Source: Promethearchaeota archaeon (GTDB lineage: Archaea > Asgardarchaeota > Lokiarchaeia > Sigyniarchaeales > SOKP01). From it: a DNA stretch of 47,723 nt. Both the position numbers and the translations under genes were made by a program. The first letter of the stretch is position 1. Every line of letters starts with the position of its first letter. The notes beneath the pieces were generated by a model, which was not told where the DNA came from, made no database searches, and worked only from the letters and a program-made list of their open reading frames with translations. Shown piece after piece: positions 3,462 through 12,771 of the stretch. The stretch is taken from contig JBHLLT010000022.1 in NCBI GenBank assembly GCA_048938855.1, positions 1 through 47,723 on the forward strand, in the 5' to 3' direction.

Positions 3462-4346
3462 CTATGAAGGTTCACCTTCTAATTTTTTTAATGCTTCACA
3501 TTCATGGGTATATCGATCTAATGATTCTTTTTCTTGATCGAGAAACCTATTAGCACGATTTATGAGATTATCAAAATCTATAATATGAGCATCAACATCA
3601 GGGCCATCTACACAAGCAAAGTATATATCACCGTCTTTTGTAGGAAAACGACACCCTCCGCACATACCAGTGCCATCAATCATAATCGTATTTAATGATA
3701 CATACGTTTTCACCTTGGGTAATCCCTCTATACCACTTGTAGTTAATGCTACATTTTTCATCATTATTAAAGGCCCAATTGCGATAACTAAATCGATCAT
3801 CCGTTTTTTGATTAATTCTTTTAATGGTGAAGTTACAAAACCCTTGATTCCCGCACTTCCATCATTAGTAGTGATTATTATCTCATCACTTACCATACTC
3901 ATTTTATCCTTCCAAAAAATTAGATCTGCGGTTCGAGCGCCTAATATTGATATGATTGTATTCCCTACATTCTTCAATTCCTTTGCTTGAGGATAACAAG
4001 GGGCAATACCTACTCCACCACCAATAATAATTACTGGATTATCATATTTCTTTATATGTATCTTATTTCCTAAAGGCCCAACTACATCTGATATTTCATC
4101 ACCTTCCTCTTGATGAGAAAGTAATAATGTAGATTTTCCTACAACTTGAATTACAAGTGTAATAATTCCTTTTTCTCTGTTGTAATCCGCAATAGTAAGG
4201 GGAATTCTCTCGCCTTTCTCGTTAATCCTAATTAATACAAAATTTCCAGCATATGCTTTTTTAGCAATTAATGGGGCAAAAATATCCATTTCGAATAATG
4301 TGCCACTATCACCAAGCTGAACCTTTTTTATAATTTTATAAGACAA
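3462..4346 (-). CDS. nfnA: NfnA/SudB (PyrK-like FAD, NAD, [2Fe-2S]) small subunit of Nfn transhydrogenase
   Basis: GERIPLTI, GGGVGIAP and MIDGTGMCGGCR...CVDGP motifs (Asp/Cys-ligated 2Fe-2S). Directly upstream of the NfnB-like gene. Confidence 0.9.
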   Translation of the reverse strand: MSYKIIKKVQLGDSGTLFEMDIFAPLIAKKAYAGNFVLIRINEKGERIPLTIADYNREKGIITLVIQVVGKSTLLLSHQEEGDEISDVVGPLGNKIHIKKYDNPVIIIGGGVGIAPCYPQAKELKNVGNTIISILGARTADLIFWKDKMSMVSDEIIITTNDGSAGIKGFVTSPLKELIKKRMIDLVIAIGPLIMMKNVALTTSGIEGLPKVKTYVSLNTIMIDGTGMCGGCRFPTKDGDIYFACVDGPDVDAHIIDFDNLINRANRFLDQEKESLDRYTHECEALKKLEGEPS

Positions 4347-4460: not shown

Positions 4461-4474
4461 GGGAATTCTTTCCC
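4461..4474. promoter_or_regulatory. Palindrome GGGAATTCTTTCCC between the putative TATA box (~4513-4521, minus strand) and the nfnA start
   Basis: GGGA-N6-TCCC. The same element recurs at 9812-9825 and 10899-10911. Confidence 0.5.
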
Positions 4475-4691: not shown

Positions 4692-6248
4692 ATGGCAATT
4701 TTAGTGTTAGATTTTGGAGGACAATATACACATCTAATTACTCGACGGATAAGAGATTTGGGTGTGTACTCTGAAATTTTACCTTTTGATGTAGATCTTG
4801 ATATATTGATTAAAAAAAACCCGAAAGCTATAATTCTTTCAGGAGGCCCTGGAAGTGTCTATGAGAAAGATGATCCTAAATTAAGTAATGAATTTTTTCA
4901 ATTTACAATCCAAAACAAAATTCCAGTCTTAGGAATTTGCTATGGTCATCATTTGATTATGCAACAAATGGGAGGCAGAGTTGAATCTAAAGAAAAAAAA
5001 GAATATGGAAAAGCAAAGCTCACAATTATTAAACCTAATTTACTTTTTGAAGACTTAGAAAAAGAACAATTAATATGGATGTCTCATGGAGATCAGATCA
5101 TAGAACTTGCGAAAGGATTTGAAGTATATGCTAATACTGAAACATGTCCGGTTGCTGCATACGGAAATCGAGAAAAACTACTATATGGAGTTCAATTCCA
5201 TCCAGAAGTATCAAACACACCGAATGGAAATAAAATCTTAGAAAACTTCATATATAAAATTGCTAAAGCTAAAAATGAATGGAAATTAGAAGGATGGATT
5301 GATAAGACTATTGAAGAATTAAGAAAAGAAATTGGTTCAGATAAAAAAGTTGTTTTGGGATTAAGTGGTGGAGTTGATTCTTCTGTTACTGCTGTGCTTC
5401 TTCATAAAGCAATTGGAGAAAGGTTGCATTGTATTTTCGTAAATAATGGTGTATTAAGAAAAAATGAAGAATTTGAAGTTCAGGAAACGTTTAGAGAAAA
5501 ACAAAAATTTAAACATTTCCATTATGTTGACGCCGAAGATATCTTTCTAAAAAGACTTGCGAATGTTAAAGATCCTGAGGAGAAACGACGAATAATTGGC
5601 CATACGTTTATTGAAGTTTTTGAGAATAAGACTATTGAATTAGAAAAAGCGTATCCGGATATTAATTATCTTGCACAGGGAACGATTTATCCCGATCGAG
5701 TTGAAACAAGTGCTACTAGTAAAGTTTCAGCTAAAATTAAATCACATCATAATTTAACTCTTCCAGAGAATATGAAGTTAAAGATAATTGAGCCTTTAAG
5801 AGATCTTTATAAAGATGAGGTAAGAAGAGTTGGTTTAAAATTAGGTTTACCAAAAAATATAATTAATCGTCATCCATTCCCAGGACCTGGGTTAGCAGTC
5901 AGGATAATAGGCGCAGTAGATAAAGAAAAGTTGACTATTTTAAGGAATGCAGATGAAATTCTAATAGAAGAGATTAGAAATGCCGGAATTTACAACCAAA
6001 TCTGGCAAGCATTTTGTGTATTTCTTCCTTTGAAGACTGTTGGAATAATGGGTGATTTTCGCACTTATGAGTATATTTGTTCCATAAGAATAGTTGAATC
6101 GAGTGATGCTATGACAGCTAACTTTTTCAAATTAGATTGGAACCTCCTTGAAAGAATTGGAACGAGAATTGCTAATGAGGTCCAAGGTATAAATCGTGTA
6201 GTTTATGATATTTCAAACAAGCCTCCAAGTACAATAGAATATGAGTAA
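4692..6248 (+). CDS. guaA: GMP synthase (glutamine-hydrolysing), single-chain GATase + synthase
   Basis: LDFGGQYT, GICYG (Cys), QFHPE, SGGVDS, IKSHHN, HPFPGPGL and KPPSTIEYE motifs. Confidence 0.97.
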   Translation: MAILVLDFGGQYTHLITRRIRDLGVYSEILPFDVDLDILIKKNPKAIILSGGPGSVYEKDDPKLSNEFFQFTIQNKIPVLGICYGHHLIMQQMGGRVESKEKKEYGKAKLTIIKPNLLFEDLEKEQLIWMSHGDQIIELAKGFEVYANTETCPVAAYGNREKLLYGVQFHPEVSNTPNGNKILENFIYKIAKAKNEWKLEGWIDKTIEELRKEIGSDKKVVLGLSGGVDSSVTAVLLHKAIGERLHCIFVNNGVLRKNEEFEVQETFREKQKFKHFHYVDAEDIFLKRLANVKDPEEKRRIIGHTFIEVFENKTIELEKAYPDINYLAQGTIYPDRVETSATSKVSAKIKSHHNLTLPENMKLKIIEPLRDLYKDEVRRVGLKLGLPKNIINRHPFPGPGLAVRIIGAVDKEKLTILRNADEILIEEIRNAGIYNQIWQAFCVFLPLKTVGIMGDFRTYEYICSIRIVESSDAMTANFFKLDWNLLERIGTRIANEVQGINRVVYDISNKPPSTIEYE

Positions 6249-8165: not shown

Positions 8166-8894
8166 TTATCTTTCTTTTCTTTTAATAAATACAATTAATC
8201 CGGTTAATGCAACTGCTGTCACTCCTACAATTACAATACTGACAGTGAGATTTCGGGATGAAATTAACGTGGATAATGCTTCACATACTTCAATTGTAGG
8301 AGCTCGGCTTGCTCCACCACCAGTTGGTCCTCCTCCTGTGGTACCAGTCACTATCCTTTGATCAATCACAACTCGTTCATCTACAGTTATCCCTCCAGCT
8401 GCAGTTACTTGTGTAGCTGAATTAACATCATAAGAGATTCTGACACCATCAACAATATCTGCAGCAGCAAGAACACGAATTCCAATGCATAATGAAGAAA
8501 TAATTAAACCTAAGTTATAAGCATTAACTAATAAATTCAATGTCGTTGGGTCATTTAACAACGCAGACCAATGACCCCCACTTGGAATAAAAATGCAATC
8601 ATATTGAAAGAGGGTGTTATTGTTGACTTCTGAAATTAAAGTATTTACTGGGACAGGCCTTGGATTCGTATTATAACATGATGTAACTGATGGTGTTAAT
8701 CCTGCGGTGGTGACTTCCCAGCCCCAAAATTCAAAATATCCTTTAGCAGGGAAGTAAGTATCCCCAACGCTGTTTGCAGCTAATATCATAACTTTATGGC
8801 CAAACATATATGCATTAACAGAAGTAGCAAAGAGACAACTAGTAATTGGCAGGAGAGATAAAAAAAGCAGAATAAATTTTGAATAATTTTTCAA
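8166..8894 (-). CDS. Secreted, C-terminally membrane-anchored DJ-1/PfpI family protein
   Basis: Signal-peptide-like N-terminus, YDCIFIPSGG, SSLCIG nucleophile elbow, VVIDQRIVTG, and a C-terminal TM helix followed by KRKER. Confidence 0.8.
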   Translation of the reverse strand: MKNYSKFILLFLSLLPITSCLFATSVNAYMFGHKVMILAANSVGDTYFPAKGYFEFWGWEVTTAGLTPSVTSCYNTNPRPVPVNTLISEVNNNTLFQYDCIFIPSGGHWSALLNDPTTLNLLVNAYNLGLIISSLCIGIRVLAAADIVDGVRISYDVNSATQVTAAGGITVDERVVIDQRIVTGTTGGGPTGGGASRAPTIEVCEALSTLISSRNLTVSIVIVGVTAVALTGLIVFIKRKER

Positions 8895-9289: not shown

Positions 9290-9499
9290 TTATTCATAGA
9301 GTATAATATAATCTTTTATTTCTAATTTCCTTTGAGATCTCAATCTTTTGAAGCTCTCTTGACTAATTATATCTGAATTACAATTCCATTTATAATCTTT
9401 TATACAATTACTAAATATTTTGCCAAAATAAACTGATTTACAACAGTTAATCTTCCTCCCATAGGAAAATTCATCTCCGCATTCCTCACATTTTATCAT
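9290..9499 (-). CDS. Small Cys-rich Zn-ribbon protein (paralog of 10949..11341)
   Basis: KCEECGDE, KDYKWNCNS..F..LRS and C-terminal ILYE, all shared with the 130-aa ORF. Confidence 0.75.
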   Translation of the reverse strand: MIKCEECGDEFSYGRKINCCKSVYFGKIFSNCIKDYKWNCNSDIISQESFKRLRSQRKLEIKDYIILYE

Positions 9500-9526
9500 A
9501 ATTAATAATTCTCTTCTAATTTCAGC

Positions 9527-9781
9527 TTATAACGCTTCATATTTTCGTGGCTTTTTATCATAATGTATTACTATTTTTTCTGGCATTTTTTCATTAATTC
9601 TTTTTATTACTTTTGAAAGTCCATTAGGACTTTTATAACCCATAGCGAAAGACCATTCTGCTACTGAAGAAATGCCAATTTCTTTCAATTTCTCTAAGCA
9701 CATTTGCTCGTAGGTTCTTGGAATTTGTTCAATTGTTTTTAATCTCTCTTGAAACTTTGTTCTAAATTGTTTTAAAGACAT
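9527..9781 (-). CDS. Small winged-helix DNA-binding protein (putative regulator)
   Basis: LEKLKEIGISSVAEWSFAMGYKSPNGLSKVIKRI helix-turn-helix pattern with a wing (DKKPRKYEAL). Has its own TATA box at ~9857-9864. Confidence 0.65.
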   Translation of the reverse strand: MSLKQFRTKFQERLKTIEQIPRTYEQMCLEKLKEIGISSVAEWSFAMGYKSPNGLSKVIKRINEKMPEKIVIHYDKKPRKYEAL

Positions 9782-9810
9782 ATAGTATCATTTTCTTTGT
9801 TTTTTAGTTG

Positions 9811-9826
9811 TGGGAACCGTTTCCCA
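9811..9826. promoter_or_regulatory. Palindrome TGGGAACCGTTTCCCA between the TATA box and the start of the wHTH gene
   Basis: Perfect 6-bp arms with a GGGA-N6-TCCC core. Confidence 0.55.
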
Positions 9827-10169
9827 TTTTACTTGCATAATTAAAGATTATATATATTTATAAATCTTTTGGTGAATTTCTAAACGTTTCTGTAAGAATT
9901 ACTTATTGAAATTAAACGATTCTATAATATTCTATTTTTATTATGAACAAGAATATAAAAATAATTTAAGTTTTGTTTCCTAGATTAAAAAATATAATAA
10001 AACAAAACTATATCATTGAACAAATAAATATAGAAGCCATGACATCTACTTGTCAAGATATTGAAAATCGTAGAAAGATCTTGATCTTTGATAAAAGATT
10101 TTGAAATCACATTAGATACCTTAAATGTTATATTAGCGTAGAAAAAATTAGATTTATAATTTAGTAATC

Positions 10170-10658
10170 CTATCTTTTTTTATTTATTAATTCGGTGAAA
10201 GAGCTGTTTTCTTTAATAACATTTAATACTATATGAGTATTAGTACGTTCAACATAAGGAGATGTATGAATATCTTTTATCATTTTACTTAAATCCTCTC
10301 TATTTTTAAATCTTGCCAAAATGAGAGCATCGTATTCTCCAGTAATGTCATAAACTGCGAATATGTGAGGATTTTTTGCCACATTTTTCTCTACTTCAAG
10401 CATTTTACCTTTTGAAATTGTTAATTCAATTATTGCAATAATATCATAGCCTAGTTTTTCAAAATCAATTTGAACTCCATAATTTTTTATTATTTTGTCC
10501 TTCTCTAAATTTTCAACATGACTTTTAATGGTTACAGGCGATTTATTACCTAGATCTTTTGCTAATTGGCGAAGTGAGATTCGGCCATCTATACTTATTT
10601 TCTTTAGAATCTCAATATCCAGATCAGAAAAATCATAAAAGTTAGATTGTTGAGGCAT
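10170..10658 (-). CDS. Lrp/AsnC family transcriptional regulator
   Basis: DLDIEILKKISIDGRISLRQLA HTH, IDFEKLGY linker and VYDITGEYD RAM motif. Confidence 0.95.
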   Translation of the reverse strand: MPQQSNFYDFSDLDIEILKKISIDGRISLRQLAKDLGNKSPVTIKSHVENLEKDKIIKNYGVQIDFEKLGYDIIAIIELTISKGKMLEVEKNVAKNPHIFAVYDITGEYDALILARFKNREDLSKMIKDIHTSPYVERTNTHIVLNVIKENSSFTELINKKR

Positions 10659-10721
10659 ATTATTAAAAAGTTATATATTTATTATAAAAGTATTCAATTG
10701 TCCATCCAATAATCGAATAAT

Positions 10722-10840
10722 TGAGCAAATGATCATTTTTCCCATCGACAAAAATTATTTTATAAATCATTCGTTCACTTTTTATATAAGAGAATATGTC
10801 ATATATAAGTTTTTCCTTCAAAAATGTAAACAAATGAACT
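10722..10840. promoter_or_regulatory. Three helically phased 14-bp boxes, candidate Lrp sites, upstream of the TATA box of the Zn-ribbon/glnA operon
   Basis: TGAGCAAATGATCA (10722), the reverse complement TGAACGAATGATTT (10764-10777) and TAAACAAATGAACT (10827). Offsets are 42 and 63 bp. Confidence 0.45.
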
Positions 10841-10898
10841 AAAAAAGGTCAAGGTTTTTAAATATGTGATCATACTATTATTCATAGAACTAAAATTA

Positions 10899-10911
10899 GG
10901 GATTTTTTCCC
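10899..10911. promoter_or_regulatory. Palindrome GGGATTTTTTCCC between the TATA box (~10857-10864) and the Zn-ribbon/glnA operon start
   Basis: (A)GGGA-N5-TCCC(T). The spacer is one base shorter than in the other two copies. Confidence 0.45.
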
Positions 10912-10948
10912 TTATATTTATATATTTAGATATGGAAAGAGATTAAAC

Positions 10949-11341
10949 ATGACATTAAAATGTCCAATTTGTGGAGAGGAATATTTCCATGATAGTAAAA
11001 TATGCCAAATTTGTGAAAGAAATTCAAATTATAGTGAATTGATAAATATTCATAAATATAAATCCAAAAAGTGGAATTGGGGTATCTTTTTAGAAATTGA
11101 TAAATTTTCGTCTGATAACTATAAACCTGATGATGCTTATATTAGGGTTACTTCTGAACCTAAATTAGTTGATTTTAAACCAAAAAAAGGGTATATATGG
11201 AATTGTAATTCGCAAACAAGGGATCGAAATTTCTATATTTTAAGATCAGGAATCTCTCAATTGAAAAACGTAAAAAAAATACCATTAACAAGATCCAACA
11301 TTCAAGAGAACCAAAAATTTAACTCATTAATTTATGAATGA
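10949..11341 (+). CDS. Zn-ribbon protein preceding glnA
   Basis: CPIC-x10-CQIC, two W-N-(W/C) repeats (KKWNWG, YIWNCNS) and C-terminal LIYE. Confidence 0.8.
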   Translation: MTLKCPICGEEYFHDSKICQICERNSNYSELINIHKYKSKKWNWGIFLEIDKFSSDNYKPDDAYIRVTSEPKLVDFKPKKGYIWNCNSQTRDRNFYILRSGISQLKNVKKIPLTRSNIQENQKFNSLIYE

Positions 11342-11421: not shown

Positions 11422-12771
11422 ATGATTGATCGAACTGATCCAAAAAGGAAACAGTCATGTGAAGCTGTTATAGAGAAAATTAAAGAAGAAGAAATAAAGT
11501 TAATTTATCTCCAATTCACTGATATTCATGGAATTATTAAGAGTTTCGAAGTAAATTCAAAAAGAATTGAGGATATATTTGAGATAGGGGAAAATTTTGA
11601 CGGAAGCTCGATAACTGGATATGGAGCGATTGAAGAGAGTGATAAGGTTGCACTTCCAGATCCTAGTACATTTTATCTTTTACCTTGGAGAAAAGAAAAT
11701 AAAGTCGCTAGAGTCATTTGTGACATTTTTAAACCTGATGGGCAACGATATGAAGGAGATCCTAGGTTTATTCTGCAGCAAGCAGTAAACAGAGCAGAGA
11801 AACATGGTTATACTTACTATTGTGCTCCAGAAATGGAGTTTTTCGTTCTTACACCTGATACTAAGCAAGCATTCAAACCTTCAGATATGAGAGGATATTT
11901 TGATTACGATCCTTATGATATAAATGAAATGATAAGATATAGGATTGCAGATTATTGTGATGCGATGGGTATTAATGTGGAATGCATTCATCATGAAGTT
12001 GCTTTTGGGCAACATGAGGTTGATTTTAGATATGACAAAGCAGTTAATACAGCTGATAATACATTAACGATTAAAACTATTGTTAAAACAGTTTCAGCTC
12101 AGCATAATTTAATAGGAACTTTTATGCCAAAACCATTTGAGGGAATTAACGGATCTGGAATGCACGTGCACCAATCTCTTTGGAAGAATGGAAATAATGT
12201 CTTTTATGATGAAACTGATAAAGATAATATTTCAATTTTAATGAAAAAATGGATTGCTGGGCAATTAAAATATGCAATTCCTATGTGTGCAGTCTTAAGT
12301 AGTTGGCCTAATTCATATAAAAGATTAGTTCCAGGATATGAAGCACCAGTCTATTTAGCTTGGGGCTTTCGAAATAGATCTCCATTGCTAAGAGTACCAG
12401 ATTTTCATAATAAATCAAGTGCGGCAAGAGTTGAAATACGTTGTCCAGATCCCTCGGGAAATCCATATCTCCAATTTGCAGTACTTTTAAGTTCAGGATT
12501 AGAAGGCATTCTTTCAGAAGATATTAAAATTCCCGAACCAACAGACAGAAATGTATATCATTTATCGTCTAAAGAAATGGAAAAAGAGGGAATTATTTCA
12601 TTACCAGGAAGTTTACATGAAGCTTTACAACATTTCAGAAATTCAGAACTTATGAAAGACATATTTGGAGAATTAGCTTTTAAAAATTACTATTACGCTA
12701 AGCTTGAAGAATATGACGCTTATCGCTTTGTAGTAAGCGAATGGGAAAGAGATAGATATATCAGATTATAA
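11422..12771 (+). CDS. glnA: Glutamine synthetase type I (alpha-like)
   Basis: FDGSSI, PEMEFF, HHEVAFGQHE, FMPKPFEGINGSGMHVHQS, NSYKRLVPGYEAP and RVEIRCPD motifs. Confidence 0.97.
   Translation: MIDRTDPKRKQSCEAVIEKIKEEEIKLIYLQFTDIHGIIKSFEVNSKRIEDIFEIGENFDGSSITGYGAIEESDKVALPDPSTFYLLPWRKENKVARVICDIFKPDGQRYEGDPRFILQQAVNRAEKHGYTYYCAPEMEFFVLTPDTKQAFKPSDMRGYFDYDPYDINEMIRYRIADYCDAMGINVECIHHEVAFGQHEVDFRYDKAVNTADNTLTIKTIVKTVSAQHNLIGTFMPKPFEGINGSGMHVHQSLWKNGNNVFYDETDKDNISILMKKWIAGQLKYAIPMCAVLSSWPNSYKRLVPGYEAPVYLAWGFRNRSPLLRVPDFHNKSSAARVEIRCPDPSGNPYLQFAVLLSSGLEGILSEDIKIPEPTDRNVYHLSSKEMEKEGIISLPGSLHEALQHFRNSELMKDIFGELAFKNYYYAKLEEYDAYRFVVSEWERDRYIRL

Follow-up and report, generated by a model that had tools for sequence, protein, structure and literature searches.

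Small zinc-ribbon proteins with an invariant C-terminal glutamate beside lrp and glnA in Lokiarchaeia, candidate partners of Lrp-type regulators

Glutamine synthetase (GS) is controlled in cyanobacteria (IF7/IF17) and in Methanosarcina mazei (sP26) by small, largely disordered proteins, and in Bacillus it is contacted by the C-terminal tails of TnrA and GlnR. We know of no case in which the genes for IF7/IF17 or sP26 share an operon with glnA, and to our knowledge nothing has been established by experiment on the regulation of nitrogen assimilation in Asgard archaea. Here, we describe a family of small zinc-ribbon proteins encoded beside glnA and an Lrp/AsnC-family regulator gene (lrp) in a Promethearchaeota archaeon of the Lokiarchaeia (GenBank assembly GCA_048938855.1). 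The window, i.e. the whole stretch of DNA that was analysed, comprises 47,723 nucleotides (nt) of contig JBHLLT010000022.1 and encodes two members of the family, zr69 (69 amino acids, aa) and zr130 (130 aa).

The arrangement resembles that of haloarchaea, where lrp adjoins glnA (PMC2894021; PMC8229911) and the Lrp of Halobacterium activates glnA (PMC2894021). The window Lrp (Pfam AsnC_trans_reg, 9e-15) scored best against an NCBIfam model of haloarchaeal Lrp, with a score below that model's cut-off. Unlike in haloarchaea, lrp and glnA are separated by a zinc-ribbon gene, a second pair of a winged helix-turn-helix (wHTH) gene (hth84) and a zinc-ribbon gene (zr69) follows lrp, and a paralogous Lrp in Lokiarchaeia relatives carries the zinc-ribbon module as its N-terminal domain. 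Archaeal small CPxCG zinc-finger proteins form a large, poorly characterised class and are often encoded beside regulated genes; Brz of Halobacterium salinarum, for instance, is encoded directly upstream of bop, the transcription of which needs Brz (PMC2253796). Like Brz, zr130 is of the CPxCG type (C5-P-I-C8-G and C19-x-x-C22, with the four cysteines invariant) and lies upstream of, and co-oriented with, a metabolic gene, whereas zr69 has CEECG (C4-E-E-C7-G) and a CC pair (C19-C20) instead of CPxCG...CxxC. No sequence relationship to Brz was shown, and the present family differs in its W-N-C motif, its long tail predicted to be disordered, its invariant [Y/F]-E ending, and the existence of a tandem-duplicated form and an Lrp/AsnC-fused form. 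We read the family as a home-grown control layer on the old archaeal lrp-glnA pair. In our estimate the chances are about even that zr69 and zr130 act as accessory partners of Lrp-type or winged-helix (hth84) transcription factors controlling the GS/nitrogen cluster, with the C-terminal tail as a docking peptide.

The likely partner, Lrp, is named by a natural fusion. Among the genome profile matches, open frames of approximately 200 aa were found in which the ribbon/WNC module (residues 1–47, ending at WNC) was joined directly to a complete Lrp/AsnC regulator. Twenty-three of these ZR-Lrp proteins (197–200 aa) were verified, from at least 23 related genomes in three genera. Their regulator part matched HTH_AsnC (5e-15) and the RAM domain (6e-8), and their module matched the zr69 family with an hhalign probability of 97.3%. 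Neither an AsnC-type helix-turn-helix (HTH) nor a RAM domain was found with Pfam in zr69 and zr130, while both domains were present in the 197-aa fused relatives of other genomes. The fusion ends with a normal RAM domain and has no Y-E tail. By Rosetta-stone logic, the fusion suggests that wHTH regulators of the Lrp type are the partners of the free-standing proteins, whose tail would either stand in for the covalent link or provide the input that the fused RAM domain gives directly. The fusion protein itself was highly conserved (L067:4871-5464, plus strand; L068:4194-4787, minus; L069:4656-5249, plus; L070:4116-4709, minus; and L092-L111). In three of four loci, the ZR-Lrp gene lay beside a histidine kinase gene and a response-regulator receiver gene.

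The gene neighbourhood of the free-standing proteins points in the same direction, as a wHTH gene adjoins each type: zr130 was divergent from lrp in most of 29 sampled loci, and the zr69 type is accompanied by hth84. The latter was directly upstream of the zr69-type gene in 27 of 29 loci, and in just two loci the two genes were in frame with a single stop codon between them. This obligatory neighbour, together with the tail-less Lrp fusion, argues for a partnership with transcription factors rather than, or besides, a direct regulation of GS or the proteasome. The product of hth84 had only a weak Pfam match (HTH_18) and no relative in a profile search of the PDB. Among 400 genomes of the phylum, profile matches to zr130 were found in 100 and to zr69 in 86, nearly all in one Lokiarchaeia-type taxonomic family and nearly confined to two of its genera (zr130 in 42/53 genomes of genus g1 and 37/42 of g12; zr69 in 44/53 and 34/42, respectively). 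Related genomes are non-independent samples, and these and the following counts express conservation, not statistics. The distribution of hth84 (42/53 in g1, 41/42 in g12, none outside family f1) nearly coincided with this narrow range, which favours the accessory-partner reading.

According to the original prediction, the 130-aa gene leads the glnA operon, and this was upheld in the orthologs. A zr130-type gene stood between divergent lrp and glnA in 27 of approximately 33 loci, with GlnA orthologs of 72–92% identity behind it. The gap between zr130 and glnA was 80 nt in this genome and 16–99 nt in 23 orthologous loci, often too short for a separate promoter. In three genomes, a zr130-type gene adjoined the gene of a second GS paralog of 500 aa, which is accompanied by an Lrp paralog of its own; this repetition of the pairing also speaks for the partnership. 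One further zr130-type copy was in an unrelated context. The second GS paralog (33–35% identical to GlnA) and its Lrp were located at L065 (G216:C84:25000-41000), L063 and L066; two of the three loci also contained a gene for a 195-aa ribbon-helix-helix protein and, nearby, amtB-glnK, forming a larger nitrogen island. Linkage to GS genes is tight and specific for the 130-aa type, and the zr69 type and a third, 62-aa paralog are not linked to glnA. The proposed flanking of lrp by the two genes held in part: one lies on each side, but hth84 sits between zr69 and lrp. Zr69-type genes and hth84 persisted in genomes without a canonical GlnA, e.g. G224 (100% complete). Two genomes of the same genus, G179 and G192 (97–99% complete), had no canonical GlnA ortholog (best GS match 41–43% identical), no hth84 and no third paralog; G179 had zero zinc-ribbon family matches and G192 a single weak one (E 9.8e-5). 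The cluster appears to come and go as a unit.

As had been predicted, the palindrome GGGA(A)-N-(T)TCCC is common to both transcription units, hth84-zr69 and zr130-glnA, and its conservation across orthologs is a further argument for the regulator partnership. In the hth84 promoters, TGGGAA-N4-TTCCCA was kept in 25 of 27 cases, approximately 40 nt behind a TATA-like box. Upstream of zr130, the palindrome was kept in 12 of 30 regions, at −48 to −52 from the start codon, with looser GG..CC palindromes in the others. The number of copies in the window was, by itself, weakly above chance (3 versus 0.87 expected). The 3.95-Mb genome contained 17 sites, approximately five of them intergenic, and three of those five lay in this window, within 6.5 kb. 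Since the arms were invariant in sequence, without covariation, a reading as an RNA hairpin was rejected; invariant arms suit a protein–DNA site, i.e. a putative operator. No riboswitch or leader RNA was found with Rfam between positions 8800 and 11600. The third copy in the window (GGGAA-N4-TTCCC, 4461–4474) was situated in the divergent intergenic region between an open reading frame (ORF) at 3462–4346 (minus strand) and a 518-aa ORF at 4692–6248 (plus strand). Distinct from the GGGA/TCCC site, a conserved TTTATATAT(G/A)TGATCATA element, in which a TGATCA palindrome comes after a TATA-like box, was present at 10853–10886 and in orthologous loci; in most of them, its distance upstream of the zr130 start was approximately 85 nt.

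The relationship between the two window proteins is distant. The original prediction had noted that the 69-aa and 130-aa ORFs, on opposite strands, share a ribbon, a WNC motif and a tail, and had taken them for paralogs; translation reproduced the coordinates and motifs. Both proteins have an N-terminal CxxCG...C(xx)C and W-N-C motifs (residues 38–40 of zr69; 42–44 and 84–86 of zr130), and they end in ILYE and LIYE, respectively. The internal repeat reported for the longer protein was also found, with WNW at residues 42–44 in this genome and WNC there in most orthologs. A direct BLASTP comparison was weak (E 0.003 and 0.006), and in whole-genome searches the zr69 query missed zr130 and vice versa. 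In contrast, the two family alignments matched each other in hhalign (probability 92.5%, E 5e-7), and the glnA-linked zr130 orthologs of other genomes were matched by the zr69-family profile (E 1e-7 to 1e-5). Because the profiles match each other, zr69 and zr130 are, on this sequence evidence, true though distant paralogs. Database homologs numbered 12 for zr130 and 9 for zr69. With frames intact in approximately 100 genomes and ratios of nonsynonymous to synonymous substitution below 0.5 (0.24–0.48 for zr130, 0.15 for zr69), both are judged to be real, conserved genes under purifying selection, and the possibility that they are not genes was ruled out.

The view of the family as uncharacterised was borne out. 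No family was found at curated cut-off in Pfam or NCBIfam for zr69, zr130, hth84 or the third paralog, and the ESM Atlas gave no usable look-alike for zr69 or zr130. A profile search of the PDB gave, besides LysW, generic zinc ribbons only (bL32, E 0.007) and nothing significant. Across these databases, the few matches of the two proteins were to generic zinc ribbons and stayed below every cut-off. No published description of the family was found in the literature searched. In an alignment of 28 zr69-type sequences, C4, C7, S12, G14, R15, C19, G26, W38, N39, C40, Y68 and E69 were invariant. In 52 zr130-type sequences, the sole invariant residues were C5, C8, C19, C22 and E130, with P6, G9, W42, N43, E70, W84, N85, L127 and Y129 conserved in at least 90%, and the approximately 30 residues preceding the tail were highly variable. 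Most zr69-type members were approximately 97 aa long and, like zr130, had two WNC units. Judged by this alignment, zr69 is a deletion form of the 97-aa type that has lost the stretch between the two units, which reconciles the alignment of the original prediction, where zr69 is matched to the second WNC unit of zr130, with that of the profiles, where it is matched to the first. In several genomes, the zr69 slot was filled by a protein of 165–172 aa in which the ribbon module occurs twice in tandem, with a single tail, and this tandem-duplicated type (172–174 aa) was also the only longer fused form retrieved from a large protein database. AlphaFold2 models made with the family alignments had a mean predicted local distance difference test (pLDDT) score of 54.5 for zr130 (72–81 for residues 1–30, mostly <50 for the remainder) and 48 for zr69. 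From the models, we take both proteins to consist of a small zinc knuckle and, behind it, a disordered chain with the short linear motifs KWNC, SEPK and Y-x-WNC-x-S-x-x-R-F and with a conserved peptide at its C-terminus.

The third paralog (62 aa; CGVKHNF...YEWNCSTC...CPLLTYE) has four cysteines, WNC and a TYE ending. It is encoded on another contig of the same genome (G000, C65:10316-10504, plus strand; L071:4817-5005) and was kept in 34 of the 53 genomes of the genus. In some genomes, it lies near genes for TrmB-family and bPH/HTH_3 regulators.

Conservation of the terminal Y-E was followed in the family members that have CxxC at the N-terminus, 107 unique sequences in all. A terminal Glu was present in 100 of these, and the other seven appeared to be fragments or lay at contig ends. 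All full-length members (100/100), across the three paralog types, thus ended in [Y/F]-E right before the stop codon. In these 100, the penultimate residue was Y in 88 and F in 12. Position −3 was hydrophobic in 90, R or K in seven and T, A or S in three; position −4 (L in 76, I in 16) was better conserved than −3. As far as the alignments tell, selection acts on the side chain of the terminal Glu, which is not what a hydrophobic-Tyr-X (HbYX) model would predict.

We infer the putative binding to Lrp or hth84, the target of the tail and the direction of regulation as follows. The zinc-ribbon/WNC module would be placed next to the regulator's DNA-binding domain, an arrangement that is covalent in the ZR-Lrp fusion, and the C-terminal tail of the free-standing proteins would be a tether that docks onto the regulator complex or a common partner. 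By being made together with GS, zr130 could feed the expression level of the operon back onto the regulator. The confinement of predicted order to the ribbon would fit a protein that folds on its partner, and activation of glnA by Halobacterium Lrp (PMC2894021) and the action of Brz (PMC2253796) provide precedents. Several observations weigh against this partnership. The genome studied here has no ZR-Lrp fusion, the closest relative of the fused module in it being zr69, and a fusion speaks for functional coupling but does not tell which surfaces are in contact. The operon of zr130 includes glnA and not lrp, which would equally suit a direct regulator of GS, and zr130 is dispensable: in approximately half of the genomes of the genus, lrp and glnA are directly divergent without it. 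A simple tether leaves the invariant terminal Glu unexplained, and the single-chain structure models are poor. Archaea have many small zinc-finger proteins, most of them unexplained; as co-regulators of Lrp only, the present proteins would still be a useful, well-defined new family, of specialist interest. Should the tail be a metabolite-mimicking plug, or a signal for docking to GS or the proteasome, it would represent a new regulatory principle for such proteins.

A direct action on GS is the main alternative, to which we give a minority share of belief: zr130, and perhaps zr69, would bind the GS dodecamer and alter its activity or assembly like IF7/IF17 or sP26, and the terminal Glu may enter the glutamate site or its vicinity. 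In a bridging version, the tail would be on GS and the ribbon on Lrp, comparable to TnrA/GlnR and GS in Bacillus. The position of zr130-type genes directly upstream of GS genes, in the 27 canonical glnA loci and the three with the 500-aa paralog, agrees with this, as does the lack of any zr130-type gene where the canonical glnA is absent; gaps down to 16 nt would imply co-translation in a fixed proportion. The likeness to the small GS-binding proteins extends to small size and the predicted disorder of most of zr130, as is reported for IF7. With an enzyme that uses glutamate, the invariance of the terminal Glu is a suggestive feature, although the substrate has a free alpha-amino group, which Glu within a peptide does not. 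However, the zr69 type and the third paralog have the same tail and persist where canonical GlnA is missing, so that only one of three paralog types is tied to GS, and the fusion partner is Lrp, not GS. There is also no similarity to any known family of GS regulators, and IF7/IF17, sP26 and TnrA/GlnR are not known to have a zinc ribbon or a conserved terminal Tyr-Glu. A further reading takes the terminal Glu, with its free alpha- and gamma-carboxylates, as a tethered pseudo-ligand for a pocket of the glutamate/glutamine type, which could be the amino-acid effector site in the RAM domain of Lrp or, in GS, the glutamate entrance. A small zinc-ribbon protein would in this way imitate the nitrogen metabolite signal, or compete with it, and GS expression would be coupled to the output of Lrp; the tail would be absent from the ZR-Lrp fusion because the covalent link makes it unnecessary. 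We regard this reading as doubtful; if true, it would be a new way to control a feast/famine regulator or GS.

The original prediction had considered, beside a regulation of GS, a link between nitrogen status and proteasomal degradation through an HbYX-like tail. In this reading, the tail would dock onto the 20S proteasome, in the pockets of its alpha ring, and link nitrogen status, or a bound regulator, to degradation or modulate gate opening. The link was not supported, and we consider it very unlikely. The extreme C-terminus does read hydrophobic-[Y/F]-X in 90% of members, after a long, predictedly disordered linker that resembles other docking tails, and in this it is like the HbYX activators (PAN, Rpt2/3/5, Cdc48, PbaB, Blm10/PA200; PMC12352868). 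Neither does Phe at −2 exclude membership, because PAN2 and one Cdc48 of this organism have it there. In HbYX, however, X is almost any residue and the hydrophobic site (−3) is reported to be central to gate opening (PMC12352868), whereas here X is Glu throughout, 10% of members have R, K, T, A or S at −3 and the conserved Leu is at −4. The known activators are rings, which the present small proteins are not. No proteasome, PAN or chaperone gene was found in approximately 60 family loci inspected, a family of about two genera would be an odd partner for a universal proteasome, and the tail-less fusion points to transcription. The C-termini of this organism's two PAN and three Cdc48 paralogs were RLYS, EFFV, RLFV, DLYR and ELYR (G000, C81:31258-32466, minus; C49:285531-286745, plus; C81:131174-133405, plus; C1:15258-17537, minus; C79:152470-154695, plus), with Phe for Tyr in two of the five. 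No more probable is a role of the terminal Glu as a chemical handle, in which the protein would be a LysW-like carrier or Pup-like tag with its gamma-carboxylate activated by an ATP-dependent ligase, or the tail a C-terminal degron of short-lived regulators; our belief in it is slighter still. The architecture is that of LysW/ArgW: approximately 50–130 aa that begin with a Cys4 zinc ribbon and end in a flexible tail, the last residue of which is always Glu. Such carboxylate activation is also the chemistry of GS, and the fold of the Pup ligase PafA resembles that of GS. A GS gene lies immediately beside zr130, and the divergent GS paralog is likewise paired with family members. Against this, the tail is hydrophobic (N-S-L-I-Y-E) and not of the acidic EDWGE type, and LysW appeared only at E 5 in the search of solved structures. 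The clusters have no ATP-grasp LysX/ArgX, lysine/arginine biosynthesis or PafA/Dop-like gene, the linked GlnA is a highly conserved housekeeping enzyme followed by glutamate synthase, and zr69-type genes adjoin no ligase.

The features of the locus are listed in Table 1. On the plus strand, glnA is followed by a glutamate-synthase gene, and the cluster neighbours of family members comprised lrp, hth84, glnA, pepF and a DJ-1/PfpI gene.

Table 1. Positions in the window of the zinc-ribbon genes, their neighbours and the promoter palindromes.
Feature	Position	Strand	Description
zr69	9290..9499	minus	69-aa small zinc-ribbon protein; intact ORF
zr69, Cys knuckles	9440-9490		residues 4-20
zr69, WNC	9380-9388		
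zr69, tail	9293-9304		ILYE
hth84	9527..9781	minus	84-aa winged-helix-like protein; 27 nt ahead of zr69 on the same strand
Palindrome GGGAA-N4-TTCCC	9812..9825	none	hth84-zr69 promoter region; ~40 nt downstream of TATA-like box
lrp	10170..10658	minus	Lrp/AsnC-family regulator (HTH and RAM domain); divergent from zr130-glnA
Palindrome GGGA-N5-TCCC	10899..10911	none	50 nt upstream of zr130 start codon
zr130	10949..11341	plus	130-aa zinc-ribbon protein; first gene of glnA operon
zr130, ribbon	10949-11038		CPICG...CQIC
zr130, WNW	11072-11080		
zr130, SEPK	11153-11164		
zr130, WNC	11198-11206		
zr130, tail	11327-11338		LIYE
glnA	11422..12771	plus	glutamine synthetase; downstream of zr130; Pfam Gln-synt_C 5e-119

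Within the 388-nt spacer between lrp and hth84, a match to an Rfam CRISPR direct repeat, the sole Rfam hit, was observed at 10070–10107 (minus strand); with 24.5 bits versus a gathering score of 39 (E 0.066), it was below threshold and is probably due to chance.

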